IMG/VR virus record: IMGVR_UViG_2671181056_000008
Coordinates: 1 to 17,177 of that record
Reading direction: 5' to 3' (one strand)
Length of the DNA: 17,177 nucleotides
Source of the DNA: a virus
Taxonomy: Duplodnaviria > Heunggongvirae > Uroviricota > Caudoviricetes
The position numbers and the translations under genes were made by a program. Shown in pieces: positions 194 through 13,736 of the stretch. How positions within the stretch are numbered: position 1 is the first letter of the stretch; every line of letters starts with the position of its first letter. A model generated the notes under the pieces. It worked only from the letters and a program-made list of their open reading frames with translations, ran no database searches and was not told the DNA's origin.

Positions 194-1294
194 ATGAGCG
201 AGTCCAAATCGCCGGATGCCCTGAGAGCAATGGTAGCCGGTACGCTGGCTAATTTTCAGCACCCAACCCTGAAACACAACTTGACTACGCTTAAAGCGTT
301 ACACCATGTTGCGTTGATGGATGACACACTGCATGTCGAACTAATCATGCCTTTCGTGTGGAATAAGCCTTTTGAAGACCTGAAAGAGCAATGTAGTGGT
401 GATCTGCTCCGTATCACTGGCGCAAAGGCTATTGACTGGAAGCTGTCGTACAACATTGCCACGCTTAAGCGCGTCAAAAACCAACCAGGCATTAATGGCG
501 TTAAGAACATTATCGCCGTCAGCTCAGGCAAGGGCGGCGTGGGTAAATCCTCCACAGCAGTAAACTTGGCACTGGCTTTGGCTGCTGAAGGTGCGAAAGT
601 TGGTATTTTGGATGCCGATATCTATGGTCCATCAATTCCAACCATGCTGGGCGCGGAAAACCAACGTCCAACCTCACCGGACGGTACTCACATGGCACCT
701 ATCATGTCTCATGGCCTGGCAACCAACTCTATTGGTTATCTGGTCACCGATGACAATGCAATGGTGTGGCGTGGACCGATGGCGAGCAAGGCGCTGATGC
801 AGATGTTGCAGGAAACACTGTGGCCTGATCTGGACTATCTCGTTCTCGATATGCCACCGGGCACTGGTGATATTCAATTGACGCTGGCGCAGAACATTCC
901 TGTAACTGGTGCGGTTGTGGTAACTACGCCGCAAGACATCGCGCTGATCGATGCGAAGAAAGGCATTGTGATGTTCGAAAAAGTCGAAGTGCCGGTACTG
1001 GGTATCGTTGAAAACATGAGTGTGCATATTTGCAGTAACTGCGGTCATCACGAGCCAATTTTTGGCACCGGTGGAGCACAGAAACTGGCCGAGAAATACA
1101 ACACGCAGTTGTTAGGCCAAATGCCACTTCATATCTCTCTTCGTGAAGATCTGGATAACGGAACACCAACCGTTATTAGTCGTCCAGATAGCGAATTTAC
1201 GGCTATTTATCGTGACCTCGCAGATCGCGTTGCTGCCCAAATGTATTGGCAAGGTGAAGTAATACCTGGCGAAATCGCATTCCGCGCAGTGTGA
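194..1294 (+). CDS. apbC: Fe-S cluster carrier ATPase ApbC/Mrp (ParA/MinD family)
   Basis: 366 aa; P-loop GKGGVGKS, MinD/Mrp-like core, C-terminal CSNCGH cysteine pair; strong Shine-Dalgarno; stop TGA at 1292-1294. Confidence 0.95.
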   Translation: MSESKSPDALRAMVAGTLANFQHPTLKHNLTTLKALHHVALMDDTLHVELIMPFVWNKPFEDLKEQCSGDLLRITGAKAIDWKLSYNIATLKRVKNQPGINGVKNIIAVSSGKGGVGKSSTAVNLALALAAEGAKVGILDADIYGPSIPTMLGAENQRPTSPDGTHMAPIMSHGLATNSIGYLVTDDNAMVWRGPMASKALMQMLQETLWPDLDYLVLDMPPGTGDIQLTLAQNIPVTGAVVVTTPQDIALIDAKKGIVMFEKVEVPVLGIVENMSVHICSNCGHHEPIFGTGGAQKLAEKYNTQLLGQMPLHISLREDLDNGTPTVISRPDSEFTAIYRDLADRVAAQMYWQGEVIPGEIAFRAV

Positions 1295-1331: not shown

Positions 1332-1721
1332 CTACATCACAGGACAATCATCAAACTCGCCACTTCTTGCGTCGTTGATAATGTGAGTGATCACACCAAA
1401 CACGGCATTGCTGCCCGTGCATCCATCGTCATCCTTTGGCAATGCTTCCTTCTTACCGGTTCTTAAATCCTCCAGATGCTGACGTGGAGACTTCCGGTAT
1501 CTTTTTACGCGATATTCCCCATCCAGAGCGCATACAAGCAGAGAACCATCAACCGGGGTAAGTGAGGAATCAACCACCAGCAATGCACCCTGTAATATTC
1601 CCTCACGATGATGACTATCAGCTGCTCTCATGAAGTAGGTCGCTGAAGGATGTCTAATTATCTGCTGATCAAGAGAAATACGGCTCTCAGCATAATCCGC
1701 CGCAGGAGAAGGGAAGCCCAT
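1332..1721 (-). CDS. UmuD'-like S24 peptidase lacking the N-terminal arm (HumD-like)
   Basis: 129 aa beginning MGFPSPAADY, which matches UmuD from its Cys24/Gly25 cleavage site onward; Ser (AADS) and Lys (RVKR) dyad positions retained; in-frame TGA five codons upstream of the ATG rules out an N-terminal arm. Confidence 0.85.
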   Translation of the reverse strand: MGFPSPAADYAESRISLDQQIIRHPSATYFMRAADSHHREGILQGALLVVDSSLTPVDGSLLVCALDGEYRVKRYRKSPRQHLEDLRTGKKEALPKDDDGCTGSNAVFGVITHIINDARSGEFDDCPVM

Positions 1722-1893: not shown

Positions 1894-2457
1894 TTATTGG
1901 CTATGGCTAAAAATCAAATGAGACACTTCATTTGGTTGTAGCTCGTCAAGATCCGGGGCCACAAAACCTTTTCCGAAAGACTTCACAAGTGATTCACCAG
2001 CCGCATCATTGTCACCTATTACGCGAAAGTCATACGGCAGCATTGCCAGTTGACGACGTAATCCTGCTGAGAAAGTCGAACCTAACAGCGCCCACGAATT
2101 TCCGCCCGCGTTGTGCACTGCTGCACTTTTAAAAATCGACTCAGTTATCCATATCGGTCCATCTTTTAAAGGAAGATAGGTTCCCCATAGTAGCTGTCTG
2201 CCGTGCGCTCGTGTGAAATACCGGGCCATCTTCGGATTGCTATGCTGCTTAGGAGCGCCTGGTCTGTATGTCTGATACCCGGCCAACATCCCATCAAACC
2301 TGTATAGAGGGAATGTAACAACTCCTTCGCTTTCATCGATCCACTGTCTATATGGATGCACATCATAGCGGTAGTTACGAGTTAGCAAATGAGCTTCCAG
2401 CTTTCCAAATTTAGTCATAACTTCGCATCCCTCATAACACTTCCCATTTATCACCAT
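1894..2457 (-). CDS. small Toprim-domain protein (DnaG-type motifs)
   Basis: C-terminal half aligns by eye to DnaG Toprim: ITES (catalytic Glu), LGST, VIGDNDAAGE (DxD). Alternative start at 2418 (MTKFGK) avoids the 26-nt overlap with the upstream gene. Confidence 0.6.
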   Translation of the reverse strand: MVINGKCYEGCEVMTKFGKLEAHLLTRNYRYDVHPYRQWIDESEGVVTFPLYRFDGMLAGYQTYRPGAPKQHSNPKMARYFTRAHGRQLLWGTYLPLKDGPIWITESIFKSAAVHNAGGNSWALLGSTFSAGLRRQLAMLPYDFRVIGDNDAAGESLVKSFGKGFVAPDLDELQPNEVSHLIFSHSQ

Positions 2458-3286
2458 ATTTCTCCATAGCTCTTAGCCAATAAACATGGCCACTAGGCAT
2501 AGTGATGTGAGGCTCGCCAAACTCTTCTCCATGTACATCAAAGATGTCCCCAACAGAAAATTGGGGGATTTCTGTTCCGTTTTCACCTATATGTGTAATT
2601 CGTATACGTTTCGGTTGGGATTGTCCACCTTTGAGCGAGTTGTTCACTGCTCTGGCAATTTTCTCCCGCAATTGCTGCGTTCCGTGATACGTAACCGCAA
2701 TATCCCGCAACTCATTCACTAGTTCTCGAATTTGGTGATCTTTAAGCTCATTATTTGGGTGATTGGTAACAACTCTGGTTAATTCCCCATTGTCTTTTGC
2801 TCTTACGTATGCAGCTCTTGTGCATTCGCCCCATGTATTACCGCCTACATTAACTTCGTAGATTAGGCTGGACTTATCTGTCAATTCGGAACAAATACGG
2901 GCCGTGGTCTGGCAACTAGAGCATTCGCAGTTATCGCGGAAACCGTGGTCTACTGGCTTCGGTTTAACATCATCAACTTTTTCTACCCTATTGGAATTTA
3001 AATACTTCGAAGCCTTGCTATGCCAATCGCTGGTTTTAGGATCTTGTCCATCCATCAAACGCCAGGCTTCAGCTATTAACTCATAACTAGTGACTGTAGC
3101 TTCCTGCGCATCACCAATAAGTCGTGTAATCTCTCTTTCAAGCCGACCGCCTAACTCCGTTTTAGTGCAATGTTCTGACCAATCGCCAGTCTCAAGAAGC
3201 GCGAGAATGCTTAAAATATCGTCCAATAGAACGGTAGTATTATCGACTTCCTTCTGAAACTCACCGGCTACTGATTTATGCATCAT
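2432..3286 (-). CDS. hypothetical protein, 284 aa, with CxCxxC cysteine cluster
   Basis: Long ORF; start ATG overlaps the upstream stop (ATGA); no family recognised. Confidence 0.6.
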   Translation of the reverse strand: MMHKSVAGEFQKEVDNTTVLLDDILSILALLETGDWSEHCTKTELGGRLEREITRLIGDAQEATVTSYELIAEAWRLMDGQDPKTSDWHSKASKYLNSNRVEKVDDVKPKPVDHGFRDNCECSSCQTTARICSELTDKSSLIYEVNVGGNTWGECTRAAYVRAKDNGELTRVVTNHPNNELKDHQIRELVNELRDIAVTYHGTQQLREKIARAVNNSLKGGQSQPKRIRITHIGENGTEIPQFSVGDIFDVHGEEFGEPHITMPSGHVYWLRAMEKYGDKWEVL

Positions 3287-11627: not shown

Positions 11628-11786
11628 TTAACACGTTGCTTTACGGACTAGCGGATAAGCGAAGTAGATCGCCAGACCAATGAGGACGCCATCAGAAATG
11701 ACAGACATCATCTTTCCCGTAAAATCCACCAACACCGCCATCACCAGAAGAGCAATGACGGTCACAAGCCGGAATCTCTCAAGCAT
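11628..11786 (-). CDS. small hydrophobic peptide, 52 aa, two predicted TM helices (not in ORF track)
   Basis: ATG at 11786 overlaps the TerB-like stop (TAATG); hand translation gives MLERFRLVTVIALLVMAVLVDFTGKMMSVISDGVLIGLAIYFAYPLVRKATC, stop at 11628-11630. Confidence 0.4.
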   Translation of the reverse strand: MLERFRLVTVIALLVMAVLVDFTGKMMSVISDGVLIGLAIYFAYPLVRKATC

Positions 11787-12211
11787 TAGAGATAAGCATC
11801 CAGTGACAACTGAAGCGCCTGGGCGATCTTTTTCAGCGCCTGCTCTTCTGGTTCATCAATGCCGTCTTGGTCGGCAATATCAAGGCACAGACAAAGTACA
11901 TCTACTGCATCATCAGTCCCGGCCACATCCGCCAGCTCACGTAAAGCCTGGGCATTAGCACGGCGCGGTGAGGCTTCGTATTGAGCGCGGATATTGGCGC
12001 TCATCTGGGCTATCTCACCAGCAAAAGGAGAAAATGCAGGCAGAGCTGCAATTGTTTTCTCAAGAATGGAAATTTCTTTTGCATCGCATGTACCGTTGGC
12101 ATAGGAGATCATGTACCCACCCCACACGGTGGCTTCAACCGCATCACGGTTCTCCATTTTTTTGACTTCGATAACTGCTTTACGAGTTTTCTTTTTGAAG
12201 AAACCTAACAT
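11786..12211 (-). CDS. TerB-like domain protein
   Basis: 141 aa; MLGFFKKK N-terminus and C-terminal DIADQDGIDEPEEQALKKIAQALQL resemble tellurite-resistance TerB as recalled; ATG behind AAGGAAAACAC. Confidence 0.6.
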   Translation of the reverse strand: MLGFFKKKTRKAVIEVKKMENRDAVEATVWGGYMISYANGTCDAKEISILEKTIAALPAFSPFAGEIAQMSANIRAQYEASPRRANAQALRELADVAGTDDAVDVLCLCLDIADQDGIDEPEEQALKKIAQALQLSLDAYL

Positions 12212-12304: not shown

Positions 12305-12493
12305 TCAGAAATAACCAAGTACCGAACCGACTGGAAAAATAAAAATCCCAACTACACGAGCCAAGGTCATGCCAGCCTGAAACTGGAGATCGCCAGAGCA
12401 AACAAGTTTTATAATGTTCGATACCCAACCGGCGGCCATGAGGGCAAGAATTGCCAGCCAAATTTTTCCAAAGTGATTTGAAAACCAGTTCAT
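12305..12493 (-). CDS. small membrane protein, 62 aa, two predicted TM helices
   Basis: Two hydrophobic segments (IWLAILALMAAGWV, VVGIFIFPVGSVLGYF); ATG overlaps the stop of the 12490..12741 frame (ATGA) and lies 9 nt after the 12503 stop. Confidence 0.5.
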   Translation of the reverse strand: MNWFSNHFGKIWLAILALMAAGWVSNIIKLVCSGDLQFQAGMTLARVVGIFIFPVGSVLGYF

Positions 12494-12502
12494 ACAACCG
12501 CC

Positions 12503-12997
12503 TTAGTCACAGCATGATCCTGAGTAACTGGATGAACTTGAGGTATCGCATCCACCGTCATCCCATCCAGAGTGACAGGTCGCTCTACTGGAGTGGTGGT
12601 AATTGTCGTCGACGGAGGTGTGGTGATGGATGAATCCGGCATCAAAAGGCTCTGACCGGCTGGAACGGCTACCGTCGCCAGTGAAACTATAATGAGAACG
12701 TAGGCCATTGGTTTCAGCCTCTTTCTTTGAAAATTTTCCATTCGAACTGTCCTTGTTGTTTTTCTCCTTCACTAAAGGCCGTGCATTTTTCGCTTCGCGT
12801 GAAGAACCAGAGGCAACAATCGCCCACACGTTCGCAACAACTGACGCTTGATTATCTAAACGTTCATTCAGCAACCGAACGGTAGTCTCTAGTTCATCAA
12901 GGCGTGACATAACACGACCGCTAAATAATTCGGCCAAAATTTGACGTAAAGAACGAGGACGTTTAGTTACAGAAGTGAAATAGGTTTGACGTGCCAT
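12503..12997 (-). CDS. hypothetical protein, 165 aa, with a second signal-peptide ORF nested out of frame
   Basis: ATG at 12997 behind GGAG; N-terminal 60 aa protein-like, C-terminal half Ser-rich low complexity and overlapped by 12490..12741 (signal-peptide-like MAYVLIIVSLATVAVPAGQSLL). Which frame is expressed is unresolved. Confidence 0.45.
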   Translation of the reverse strand: MARQTYFTSVTKRPRSLRQILAELFSGRVMSRLDELETTVRLLNERLDNQASVVANVWAIVASGSSREAKNARPLVKEKNNKDSSNGKFSKKEAETNGLRSHYSFTGDGSRSSRSEPFDAGFIHHHTSVDDNYHHSSRATCHSGWDDGGCDTSSSSSYSGSCCD

Positions 12998-13026
12998 GTG
13001 GACTCCATCCAGTGTCATAAAGAGTT

Positions 13027-13048
13027 GCGGCTGGCAATCGCCAGCCGC
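13027..13048. terminator. GC-rich hairpin, candidate terminator or attenuator
   Basis: 9-bp stem gcggctggc / gccagccgc with 4-nt loop, immediately upstream of the 12503..12997 gene; U-tract weak on the minus strand, better (CTTTCTCGTT) on the plus strand. Confidence 0.4.
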
Positions 13049-13142
13049 CTTTCTCGTTCCATCCTGGAACTGTGTCTTACCGACACATTGTCATCCTGAC
13101 GCCGATAAGATACATGATTTATAATGATAGGTAAACACTTAC

Positions 13143-13736
13143 TTACTGTTTGTTATAAACAAAACCAATATCTTTCTTGTGAGGCATATCTGCTGCTGAA
13201 AAAGCTGCGATCTTCGCGAGTCGATCACATATTTCATTTTCACGATGCCCGGCGTGACCTTTAACCCACTTCCAGCGAACATTATGTCGACTTGCGGCCT
13301 CATCCAGACGCTTCCACAGATCAACATTCTTTACCGGTTTTTTGTCAGAAGTCATCCATCCATTGCGTTTCCACCATTTCATCCACTGTGTCATGCCGTT
13401 TTTCAGATACTGGCTATCAGAGTGCAAAATAACGTTGCATGGATATTTCAAACGCTCCAGCCCGATAAGTGCCCCCATCATCTCCATGCGGTTATTGGTG
13501 GTGCTATGAAAACCATCTGAGAACTCGCGTTCCTCGCCACGATACTGGAGAACGATACCGTAACCGCCCGGGCCACCCGGATTTTTAAGGCAAGAGCCAT
13601 CACTAAAGATTTTCACGGTTTTAAGCTGGGGATTGAACTCTACGACAGGCGTTGTGGGATTGGTGCGGGGAGAATTTTTGTTTTTGTCTTTTTTGCGAGT
13701 TTTTGCTTGCGGTCGGGCTGGTGTCTTCGTTGTCAT
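13143..13736 (-). CDS. rnhA: ribonuclease HI homologue with basic N-terminal extension
   Basis: 197 aa from ATG at 13736 (AGGAG upstream); core [17 protein letters not shown]...TNNRMEMMG...HSDSQY...[11 protein letters not shown] aligns closely to E. coli RnhA; about 40-residue Lys/Arg/Pro-rich N-terminal extension. Confidence 0.9.

Follow-up and report, generated by a model that had tools for sequence, protein, structure and literature searches.

Organization of the A-B-C locus

The window analyzed here, the whole 17,177-nucleotide stretch of the virus record IMGVR_UViG_2671181056_000008 (Caudoviricetes), carries on its minus strand three small genes, denoted A, B and C, the first two of which are read from partly the same DNA in different frames (Table 1). 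Open reading frame (ORF) B starts inside ORF A and runs 13 nucleotides past the stop codon of A, making the arrangement “overlapped” rather than strictly nested, and it ends at the start of C, which encodes a small membrane protein. Comparison of homologous loci suggests that both overlapping frames are genuine genes, with dual coding in the shared DNA and coupling into C; on the sequence evidence, we assign this reading a probability of roughly 0.7. Gene overlaps as such are well established in phages.

The source element is a phage-plasmid of the SSU5/pHCM2 type, as this type is named in the literature. The locus is 100% identical to those of Escherichia coli O104:H4 plasmid p09EL50, Shigella sonnei plasmids and Escherichia phage CMS-2020a, and phages PhiR41_1 and Cyrano show 97-98% identity to this region of the window. 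In tblastn searches, the A protein and the B protein retrieved the same ~680 plasmids from PLSDB, down to 40-55% identity, and these matches span six genera (Escherichia, Klebsiella, Salmonella, Enterobacter, Citrobacter and Cronobacter).

In the seven annotated records inspected first, including SSU5 (SSU5_091 and SSU5_092), A and C are called, A as a hypothetical protein, and B is omitted. B is likewise unannotated in the RefSeq, SSU5 and other intact-locus records inspected, because gene callers retain just the longer of two overlapping ORFs. In several RefSeq/GenBank records of the Klebsiella lineage, a 300-nucleotide “empty” gap precedes tciA, so that both B and C are missed. PHROGs includes separate families for A, B and C, all without an assigned function, which indicates that some phage annotations called each of the ORFs. 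A matches phrog_10411 (E = 1.3e-80, profile positions 1-169 of 169), B matches phrog_15659 from its residue 12 onward (E = 1.9e-48, profile positions 1-72 of 72), and C matches phrog_6006 (E = 2e-25, profile positions 1-58 of 58). The phrog_15659 profile starts at the second methionine of B, corresponding to a 72-amino-acid version of the protein, and the conserved start lies 11 codons upstream; PHROGs does not note that phrog_10411 and phrog_15659 are two frames of the same DNA. No published work on the A/B/C locus was found in the literature, judged by titles and abstracts.

Conservation of both reading frames

Homologous loci were fetched with the non-overlapping N-terminal 64-79 residues of A as the query, to avoid selecting for the overlap, and loci from annotated records were added to this anchored set, for a total of 146 loci that comprise 105 distinct versions in about nine lineages; a profile scan of genome contigs contributed only three loci of the pHCM2 lineage. 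The lineages diverge by up to ~0.6 substitutions per site. Nearly all versions (97 of the 105) are intact and share one architecture with both frames open, A consisting of 158-179 codons and B of 83-92 codons. Of the 8 exceptions, three carry single-nucleotide deletions that break both frames together, and the others reflect contig ends, insertion sequences or rearrangements, and a single assembly full of errors. The ninth lineage (L151; P0052), detected through HMMER, is only 46% identical in the N-terminal domain of A and has no C, and it keeps both frames and the offset between the two stop codons, which is exactly 13 nucleotides in all 97 intact versions and in this lineage. The finding that had been named beforehand as refuting a gene within a gene, namely homologues retaining only one frame, was looked for in the 97 intact versions and L151 and was not encountered; indeed, no nonsense codon confined to one of the frames was present among the 105 distinct versions and L151.

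The third frame (+2 relative to A; 12503..12640 in the window) likewise lacks stop codons in many lineages, over a stretch of 44-56 codons in the 3' half of the overlap (for example, positions 502..633 of L011 and 532..699 of L007). This frame has no start codon and no conservation of its own, and it is most likely open only because the two real frames impose such a composition on the DNA.

Three versions (locus L063 and the proteins P0008 and P0016) are mosaics, in which the N-terminal domain of A, and sometimes the N-terminus of B, derives from the L010 lineage and the tails derive from the lineage of the window. No two of the three breakpoints coincide, and all fall within the overlap or just ahead of it, showing that recombination shuffles the halves of this locus.

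Selection in the two frames

From a codon alignment, a neighbour-joining tree and parsimony ancestors, each substitution was classed by its effect in the A frame and in the B frame, and the counts were scaled to mutational opportunity, with synonymous changes in the non-overlapping part of A as the neutral reference. In the control region (A codons 2-85), A evolves as an ordinary gene, with an omega of 0.50 and 138, 85 and 229 events at codon positions 1, 2 and 3, respectively.

We distinguish segments O1 to O4 of the overlap. In O1, changes that affect only B are strongly depleted (25 events against 58.5 opportunity units, or 0.27 of neutral), and changes that affect only A are close to free (77 against 59.1 units, or 0.83 of neutral; binomial p = 2.5e-7 for B-only versus A-only). 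The events at positions 1, 2 and 3 of the A codons number 83, 47 and 33, a pattern that is inverted for A and canonical for B. In tree-free pairwise comparisons of eight lineages, the differences at positions 1, 2 and 3 of the B codons in O1 are 0.25, 0.19 and 0.44, compared with 0.34, 0.19 and 0.56 in the control gene, the least variable position being the third of A (second of B) and the most variable the first of A (third of B). The next segment, O2, which encodes a Thr/Pro-rich sequence in B and a His-rich one in A, is about neutral in both respects (0.86 for B-only and 1.03 for A-only changes). In O3, where the nucleotides are nearly invariant in all lineages, both classes of changes are suppressed (0.28 of neutral for B-only and 0.31 for A-only changes, with 7 and 10 events, respectively).

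The pattern is reversed in O4. Here, B-only changes are at the neutral level (32 events against 19.9 units, or 1.03), A-only changes are depleted (13 against 21.2 units, or 0.39; binomial p = 0.0026), and the third position of A is the most variable one. The same bias is seen on branches shorter than 0.03 (19 B-only versus 6 A-only changes, p = 0.008) and when each site segregating within a cluster is counted once (9 versus 1, p = 0.009); with sites counted once, the reversal between O1 and O4 is itself significant (Fisher p = 0.007). Because it holds on shallow branches and within clusters, the reversal in O4 is independent of the alignment between lineages. The opposite asymmetry of O1 likewise persists on shallow branches and with segregating sites counted once. 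Overall, purifying selection is partitioned between the two proteins, acting on the basic/hydrophobic N-terminus of B, on the C-terminal tail of A, on both at the SGWD/LDGM core, and on neither in the middle. The first-pass annotation had proposed a substitution analysis by codon position for deciding which frame is under purifying selection, and the outcome is that each has a stretch of its own, B in O1 and A in O4. Its description of the A tail as low-complexity is apt for the middle part, which evolves neutrally, but not for the last 13 codons, which are constrained in the A frame.

These data bear on an alternative that we regard as unlikely but worth weighing, namely that only B and the N-terminal helical domain of A matter, and that the last ~80 residues of A are a tolerated read-through tail, open because of its composition or for the sake of ribosomes that reach a stop codon within the Shine-Dalgarno element of C. 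The near-neutral A-only rates in O1 and O2 are compatible with such a tail, as are its predicted disorder, the variation in the length of A, the loss of the terminal CCD in some lineages, and the fixed position of the A stop codon relative to the Shine-Dalgarno element of C. The tolerated tail does not, however, explain the coding signature of the A frame in O4, nor the persistence of the open frame. When the synonymous codons of B are randomized, A stays open with a probability of only 0.012-0.10 per lineage; given these low values, the openness of A across nine lineages is an improbable event. Stop codons in the A frame correspond to 13.5 opportunity units, so that ~13 events would be expected, and none is found in extant sequences; the three “stop” events reconstructed by parsimony trace back to multiply changed codons on long branches and are artefacts. 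In the window itself, five single-base changes would stop A and be silent in B, and none of these is present in the homologues. Furthermore, L015 and L151, which lack C, keep A open to the same position, so coupling to C is not the sole reason for the open frame.

Start, stop and junction signals

All 97 intact versions retain the first ATG of B, across which the A frame encodes N, H or D (column 273; 6, 0 and 0 events). In all 8 lineages checked, a purine-rich element (AAGGA, GGAGA, AGGGAA or GGAAGG) is located 5-7 nucleotides upstream of this ATG, and the A-frame residues it encodes differ across the lineages (KD, ME, GK or EG). The AGAGG site noticed in the first reading of the sequence does exist but precedes the second methionine rather than the first ATG; it shows good anti-Shine-Dalgarno pairing in the lineage of the window alone and is absent elsewhere, and the S. 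Anatum lineage does not have the second methionine at all. For A, an in-frame ATG at 13018 would lengthen the protein to 171 amino acids. Because this codon falls within the closing stem of the conserved leader RNA described below, the start at 12997 is favoured, and in homologues and public annotations A begins there with MARQ.

At the other end of the overlap, the stop codon of B overlaps the start codon of the 62-residue two-helix protein C, as noted from the sequence at the outset. The junction is ATGA in 69 of the 97 versions, GTGA in 25 and ATAA in the remaining 3, which belong to a lineage without C. In the Klebsiella lineage (L007, L008, L012 and L150), C starts with the GTG of a GTGA junction, about 10 nucleotides after the stop codon of A. 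The sequence T(A/G)AGG at the A stop codon is conserved as well.

These signals are difficult to reconcile with A being the sole real gene and B a chance frame that arises from a Ser/Gly/His/Asp-rich composition with few codons capable of yielding +1 stops, an explanation that we consider very unlikely. An open nested frame is unremarkable by itself: given the composition of the A tail, the +1 frame is open with a probability of 0.65 in the window sequence, and under synonymous randomization of the tail B stays open with a probability of 0.08-0.65 per lineage. The absence of B calls in the intact-locus records would also fit a chance frame. By contrast, such a frame would not be expected to evolve in O1 at a fraction of the rate of A, with the positional variability of a B-frame gene; to keep its ATG invariant while the spanning A residue varies; to retain a Shine-Dalgarno-like element through different A residues; to conserve a basic-then-hydrophobic architecture through conservative replacements; or to preserve the ATGA/GTGA junction with C in 94 of the 97 versions. 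Neither would it be expected to acquire no stop codons over 9.7 opportunity units, when the pseudo +1 frame of the control region, upstream of the overlap, gained or lost stops 40 times, at about the neutral rate. The case for B thus rests on the selection in O1, the invariant ATG, the Shine-Dalgarno-like element and the conserved junction with C, which together point to a translated gene. Taking both frames together, the choice left by the first-pass annotation between a true gene within a gene and one spurious frame is best settled in favour of the former, both frames being kept in 97 of the 97 intact versions, with separate selection on each.

Table 1. Features of the A-B-C locus and its surroundings (window coordinates)
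Feature	Position	Strand	Description
rnhA	13736..13143	minus	followed by a 145-nt spacer to A
Structured leader	13014..13100	minus	~87 nt in the rnhA-A spacer; closing stem (GUCAGGA/UUCUGAC) enclosing three hairpins
A Shine-Dalgarno GGAG	13003..13006	minus	5 nt upstream of ATG 12997; GGAG or GGAA conserved
ORF A	12997..12503	minus	164 codons + TAA
B Shine-Dalgarno-like AAGGA	12750..12754	minus	upstream of the first ATG
ORF B	12741..12490	minus	83 codons + TGA; +1 frame of A (12997-12741 = 256)
Dual-coding stretch	12503..12741	minus	239 nt read in two frames
O1	12631..12738	minus	B codons 2-37; B constrained, A nearly free
AGAGG	12718..12722	minus	9 nt upstream of the second Met of B, ATG 12708..12706
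O3	12545..12580	minus	core SGWD in A, LDGM in B; both change classes suppressed
O4	12506..12544	minus	last 13 codons of A, Ser/Cys-rich tail; A constrained, B free
TAAGG	12501..12505	minus	A stop TAA 12505..12503 embedded in the C Shine-Dalgarno element
ATGA	12490..12493	minus	overlap of B stop and C start
ORF C	12493..12305	minus	62 codons; two-helix membrane protein
tciA homologue	12211..11786	minus	TerB-type
tciB homologue	11786..11628	minus	DUF3927

Predicted proteins

A has a basic N-terminal segment and a long helix followed by a disordered region rich in His, Ser, Gly and Asp. AlphaFold2, run with a nine-sequence alignment, predicted helices at residues 17-25 and 28-70, with a predicted local distance difference test (pLDDT) score of 77-93 over residues 20-60 and a mean of 55.7, which agrees with the initial impression that the protein is protein-like for its first ~60 residues and of low complexity thereafter. 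In the window, A ends with C-H-S-G-W-D-D-G-G-C-D, followed by the terminal S-G-S-C-C-D, and in most lineages the tail includes C-x-S/T-G-W-D/N and a Ser-rich stretch ending in C(C)D. No transmembrane segment was detected in A: the 19-residue Kyte-Doolittle maximum is 0.36-0.97 in seven lineages, and no value exceeds 1.6. A is probably a cytoplasmic protein that consists of a helical, likely coiled-coil N-terminal domain and a disordered, acidic tail rich in His, Cys and Ser.

B starts with MENFQRKRLKP, continues with a hydrophobic segment of ~20 residues (within residues ~8-35; 19-residue Kyte-Doolittle maximum of 2.0 in the window) and the sequence VPAGQSLLMPD, and then comprises a Thr/Pro-rich linker, an LDGMxxDxIP motif and a short tail. 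The basic RKRLK and the hydrophobic window, which scores 1.8-2.05 by the Kyte-Doolittle heuristic, are found in all lineages with conservative replacements; the [VI]P[AST]-G/T-Q-S/A-L-L segment is conserved as well, and the Thr/Pro-rich linker varies between lineages. The [VI]-P-[AST] that precedes G/T-Q would fit positions -3 and -1 of a signal peptidase I site, although an uncleaved anchor is equally possible. B is thus predicted to carry a signal peptide or a signal anchor and to be exported or anchored in the membrane, in line with the signal-peptide-like segment and Thr/Pro-rich tail recognized in the first reading of the sequence.

C consists of two hydrophobic helices that form a hairpin. 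It is absent or disrupted in three lineages that retain A and B (L004, L015 and L151), so the A/B overlap is independent of C. Distant stand-alone relatives of C, with 37-42% identity, are encoded in unrelated phages of Aeromonas, Vibrio and Octadecabacter (among them L156, positions 1399..1584, and L157, positions 2450..2656). In Vibrio phage 1.177.O, the relative of C occurs alone, in the opposite orientation, inside the head-completion (head-tail) module, in a moron-like manner.

Counterevidence and further alternatives

Several observations weigh against dual coding by A and B. O3 and O4 yielded few events (7-32), and parsimony on a tree of recombining sequences, such as the mosaics described above, may count one event repeatedly. 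The alignment of the tails between lineages includes indels, and the tree-free positional signal in that region is weak (0.32, 0.38 and 0.44); for this reason, the conclusion on the tail rests on the within-lineage and tree-based counts. The terminal Cys-Cys of A is not universal (the S. Anatum lineage has SSLSD instead, and a 24-nucleotide deletion is found there in one lineage), and residues 69-164 of A have pLDDT scores below 50 and are predicted to be disordered-like. The A frame might be kept open in part for translational coupling and not for the sake of the protein, and the openness of the B frame, given the randomization results, is weak evidence. Finally, scans of A, B and C against PADLOC, NCBIfam and Pfam gave no PADLOC or NCBIfam matches and none near the Pfam gathering threshold; in these same scans, A and B produced only sub-threshold noise, and the neighbouring genes are recognized as TerB and DUF3927 by annotation. 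A HMMER search with the N-terminal domain of A against 1.84 billion representatives retrieved 14 proteins, all from this phage-plasmid family, and a word-indexed search with B gave matches solely within its own family.

A different kind of explanation, which we find highly improbable, holds that the frames are joined by transcriptional slippage or programmed +1 frameshifting, so that the protein that functions would be the N-terminal domain of A fused to the C-terminal part of B. Database variants with single-nucleotide deletions do read from A into B (P0012-14, P0017, P0025, P0045, P0047, P0053, L055, L062 and L094). One of these deletions, which shortens a run of four T to three on the coding strand (12644..12647; L094, L154, L155, P0012-14 and P0017), recurs in several sub-lineages and in three metagenomic or viral contigs; it truncates B after the hydrophobic segment and joins the first 117 residues of A to the last 51 of B, a fusion of 168 amino acids. 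Other deletions have the same effect in L055 and L062 (pHCM2 and Klebsiella lineages) and, at a run of five A, in P0025. However, the deletion sites differ between lineages and share no conserved slippery motif, the runs consist of only 4-5 bases, and the four-T run is present in 60 loci versus three T in 3. Shifts into the third frame also occur (P0010, P0011, P0024 and P0048), as would be the case for random indels or assembly errors. Moreover, a fusion would leave unexplained the selection on the start codon, the Shine-Dalgarno-like element and the hydrophobic N-terminus of B, which lie upstream of most of the junctions. We therefore rejected programmed frameshifting as the main explanation and treat the variants as indel alleles or assembly errors; that the recurrent deletions fusing the N-terminal domain of A to the C-terminus of B are a real switch would be a long shot.

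A reading of the locus as a lysis module, with A and B as two-component spanins of the Rz/Rz1 kind and C as a holin-like partner, is scarcely credible: despite the +1-frame overlap known from P2 lysB/lysC, the coiled-coil-like helix of the larger product and the predicted export and Pro/Thr-rich sequence of the smaller one, A lacks a transmembrane domain in every lineage (19-residue Kyte-Doolittle maximum <1.0), B has no conserved Cys or lipobox (a Cys is present in the Klebsiella lineage only, in the poor context LITIC), the genes around the locus encode RNase H, Dam methylase, TerB and DUF4942 proteins and no endolysin or holin, and the SSU5 spanins have been mapped to 28585..29000 (Kongari et al. 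2018, PMC6139136, supplementary file 5), 51 kb from the A/B locus of that phage (80054..80746). This candidate was rejected: two defining features, the transmembrane domain of an i-spanin and the lipobox of an o-spanin, are absent, and the locus lies outside the lysis cassette.

A conserved leader RNA upstream of A

The spacer between rnhA and A contains a structured RNA element whose fold was found in all nine lineages. RNAalifold predicted 30 pairs, with 98.2% of the cells paired and compensatory changes in 8 of the pairs, mostly in hairpin 1. None of 500 shuffles reached the observed value, slid partners pair in 33-45%, and the U-G pairs occur in the fold of the gene-sense strand. No Rfam match was obtained for this element even at E = 10, and ARAGORN together with Rfam detected no known RNA in the window. 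With respect to the A-B-C message, the element could act as a leader, a terminator, a processing site or a site where a protein binds.

Hairpin 3 of the leader (13027..13048), which has a 9-base-pair GC-rich stem, carries its loop in both orientations among close relatives (compare L002, L089, L065, L078 and L086), as illustrated by the loop pairs CGATTG/CAATCG, CTTGG/CCAAG, ACATT/AATGT, AATG/CATT and CATGG/CCATG. This is a flip-flop inversion of the loop between inverted repeats, which occurred independently in at least five lineages.

Genomic context

This part of the window has genes on the minus strand only, in the order rnhA, structured leader, A, B, C, tciA and tciB. The neighbourhood includes genes for RNase H, Dam, a DUF4942 methylase-like protein and an exonuclease, that is, genes of DNA-metabolism and anti-restriction type, with the TerB-like tciA and tciB adjoining, and the A-B-C locus sits in a long, leftward early/accessory operon.

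Elsewhere in the window, one of the few long plus-strand ORFs (194..1294) is apbC, a cellular-type iron-sulfur carrier gene, and, among these ORFs, it alone is called as a gene in the p09EL50 annotation. In that plasmid, apbC adjoins metG, which encodes methionine-tRNA ligase, pointing to a phage-plasmid with housekeeping-type cargo.

A tentative model of expression and function

If A and B are both genes, they would be initiated independently, A from its GGAG element and B at its own ATG inside A. B would be inserted into or exported across the inner membrane by means of its signal-like segment. Its termination at the ATGA would hand ribosomes directly to C by re-initiation, and termination of A inside the Shine-Dalgarno element of C may also feed C. 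As B stops at the ATGA and A stops in the Shine-Dalgarno element, the synthesis of C is putatively coupled to both upstream frames. A would remain cytoplasmic, and B and C would go to the envelope, where they probably act together in an accessory, moron-like function beside the TerB-like TciA and TciB. Given the operon of DNA-metabolism and anti-restriction-type genes next to tciA and tciB, our guess at the likeliest role is an accessory envelope function, for instance in exclusion, immunity or stress tolerance.

A bolder version, which we regard as a long shot when all its parts are taken jointly, is that A, B and C form one functional unit, in which the overlap is part of the mechanism and the previously undescribed four-helix leader RNA exerts control. 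Ribosomes translating the A tail would then gate the initiation of B, and the passage from either frame into C at their shared junction would set the proportion of A, cytoplasmic, rich in His and Cys and possibly binding metal or tellurite, to an exported partner B and its membrane receptor C.

Phage-plasmids of the SSU5/pHCM2 type are common in clinical E. coli, Shigella, Klebsiella, Salmonella Typhi, Enterobacter and Cronobacter. The practical consequence of the present reading is modest, consisting of one more gene to annotate in these widespread clinical elements and a candidate envelope-acting accessory module. More generally, the locus would be a clean natural case of out-of-frame overlap, in which constraint is split between two proteins and two upstream frames meet at one downstream start, and it illustrates that a low-complexity tail is unsafe ground for dismissing either frame.

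Comparison with known systems

The arrangement resembles the lambda Rz/Rz1 and P2 lysB/lysC pairs in having a downstream gene whose start lies within the upstream one, in the +1 frame, and whose end, like that of “overlapped” spanin genes, lies beyond the upstream stop codon; the division of labour is also reminiscent, with a small product that combines an export signal with a Pro/Thr-rich body and a larger one with a long helix. Unlike in the spanins, A has no i-spanin transmembrane domain, B has no o-spanin lipobox Cys, and the locus is early/accessory. The resemblance to coupled ATGA operon junctions lies in the overlap of the TGA of B with the ATG or GTG of C and in the position of the A stop codon within the Shine-Dalgarno element of C; the difference is that here two upstream frames end within 13 nucleotides of one C start, the coupling being putative. 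With overprinted genes such as A/B/K/E of phiX174 and L of MS2, the A/B pair shares the use of one DNA in two frames, one reading of which is compositionally biased or disordered, and an arrangement whereby the critical part of each protein faces the tolerant part of the other, although the A/B pair belongs to a 108-kb element without obvious pressure on genome size. The locus thus belongs with overprinted gene pairs generally.

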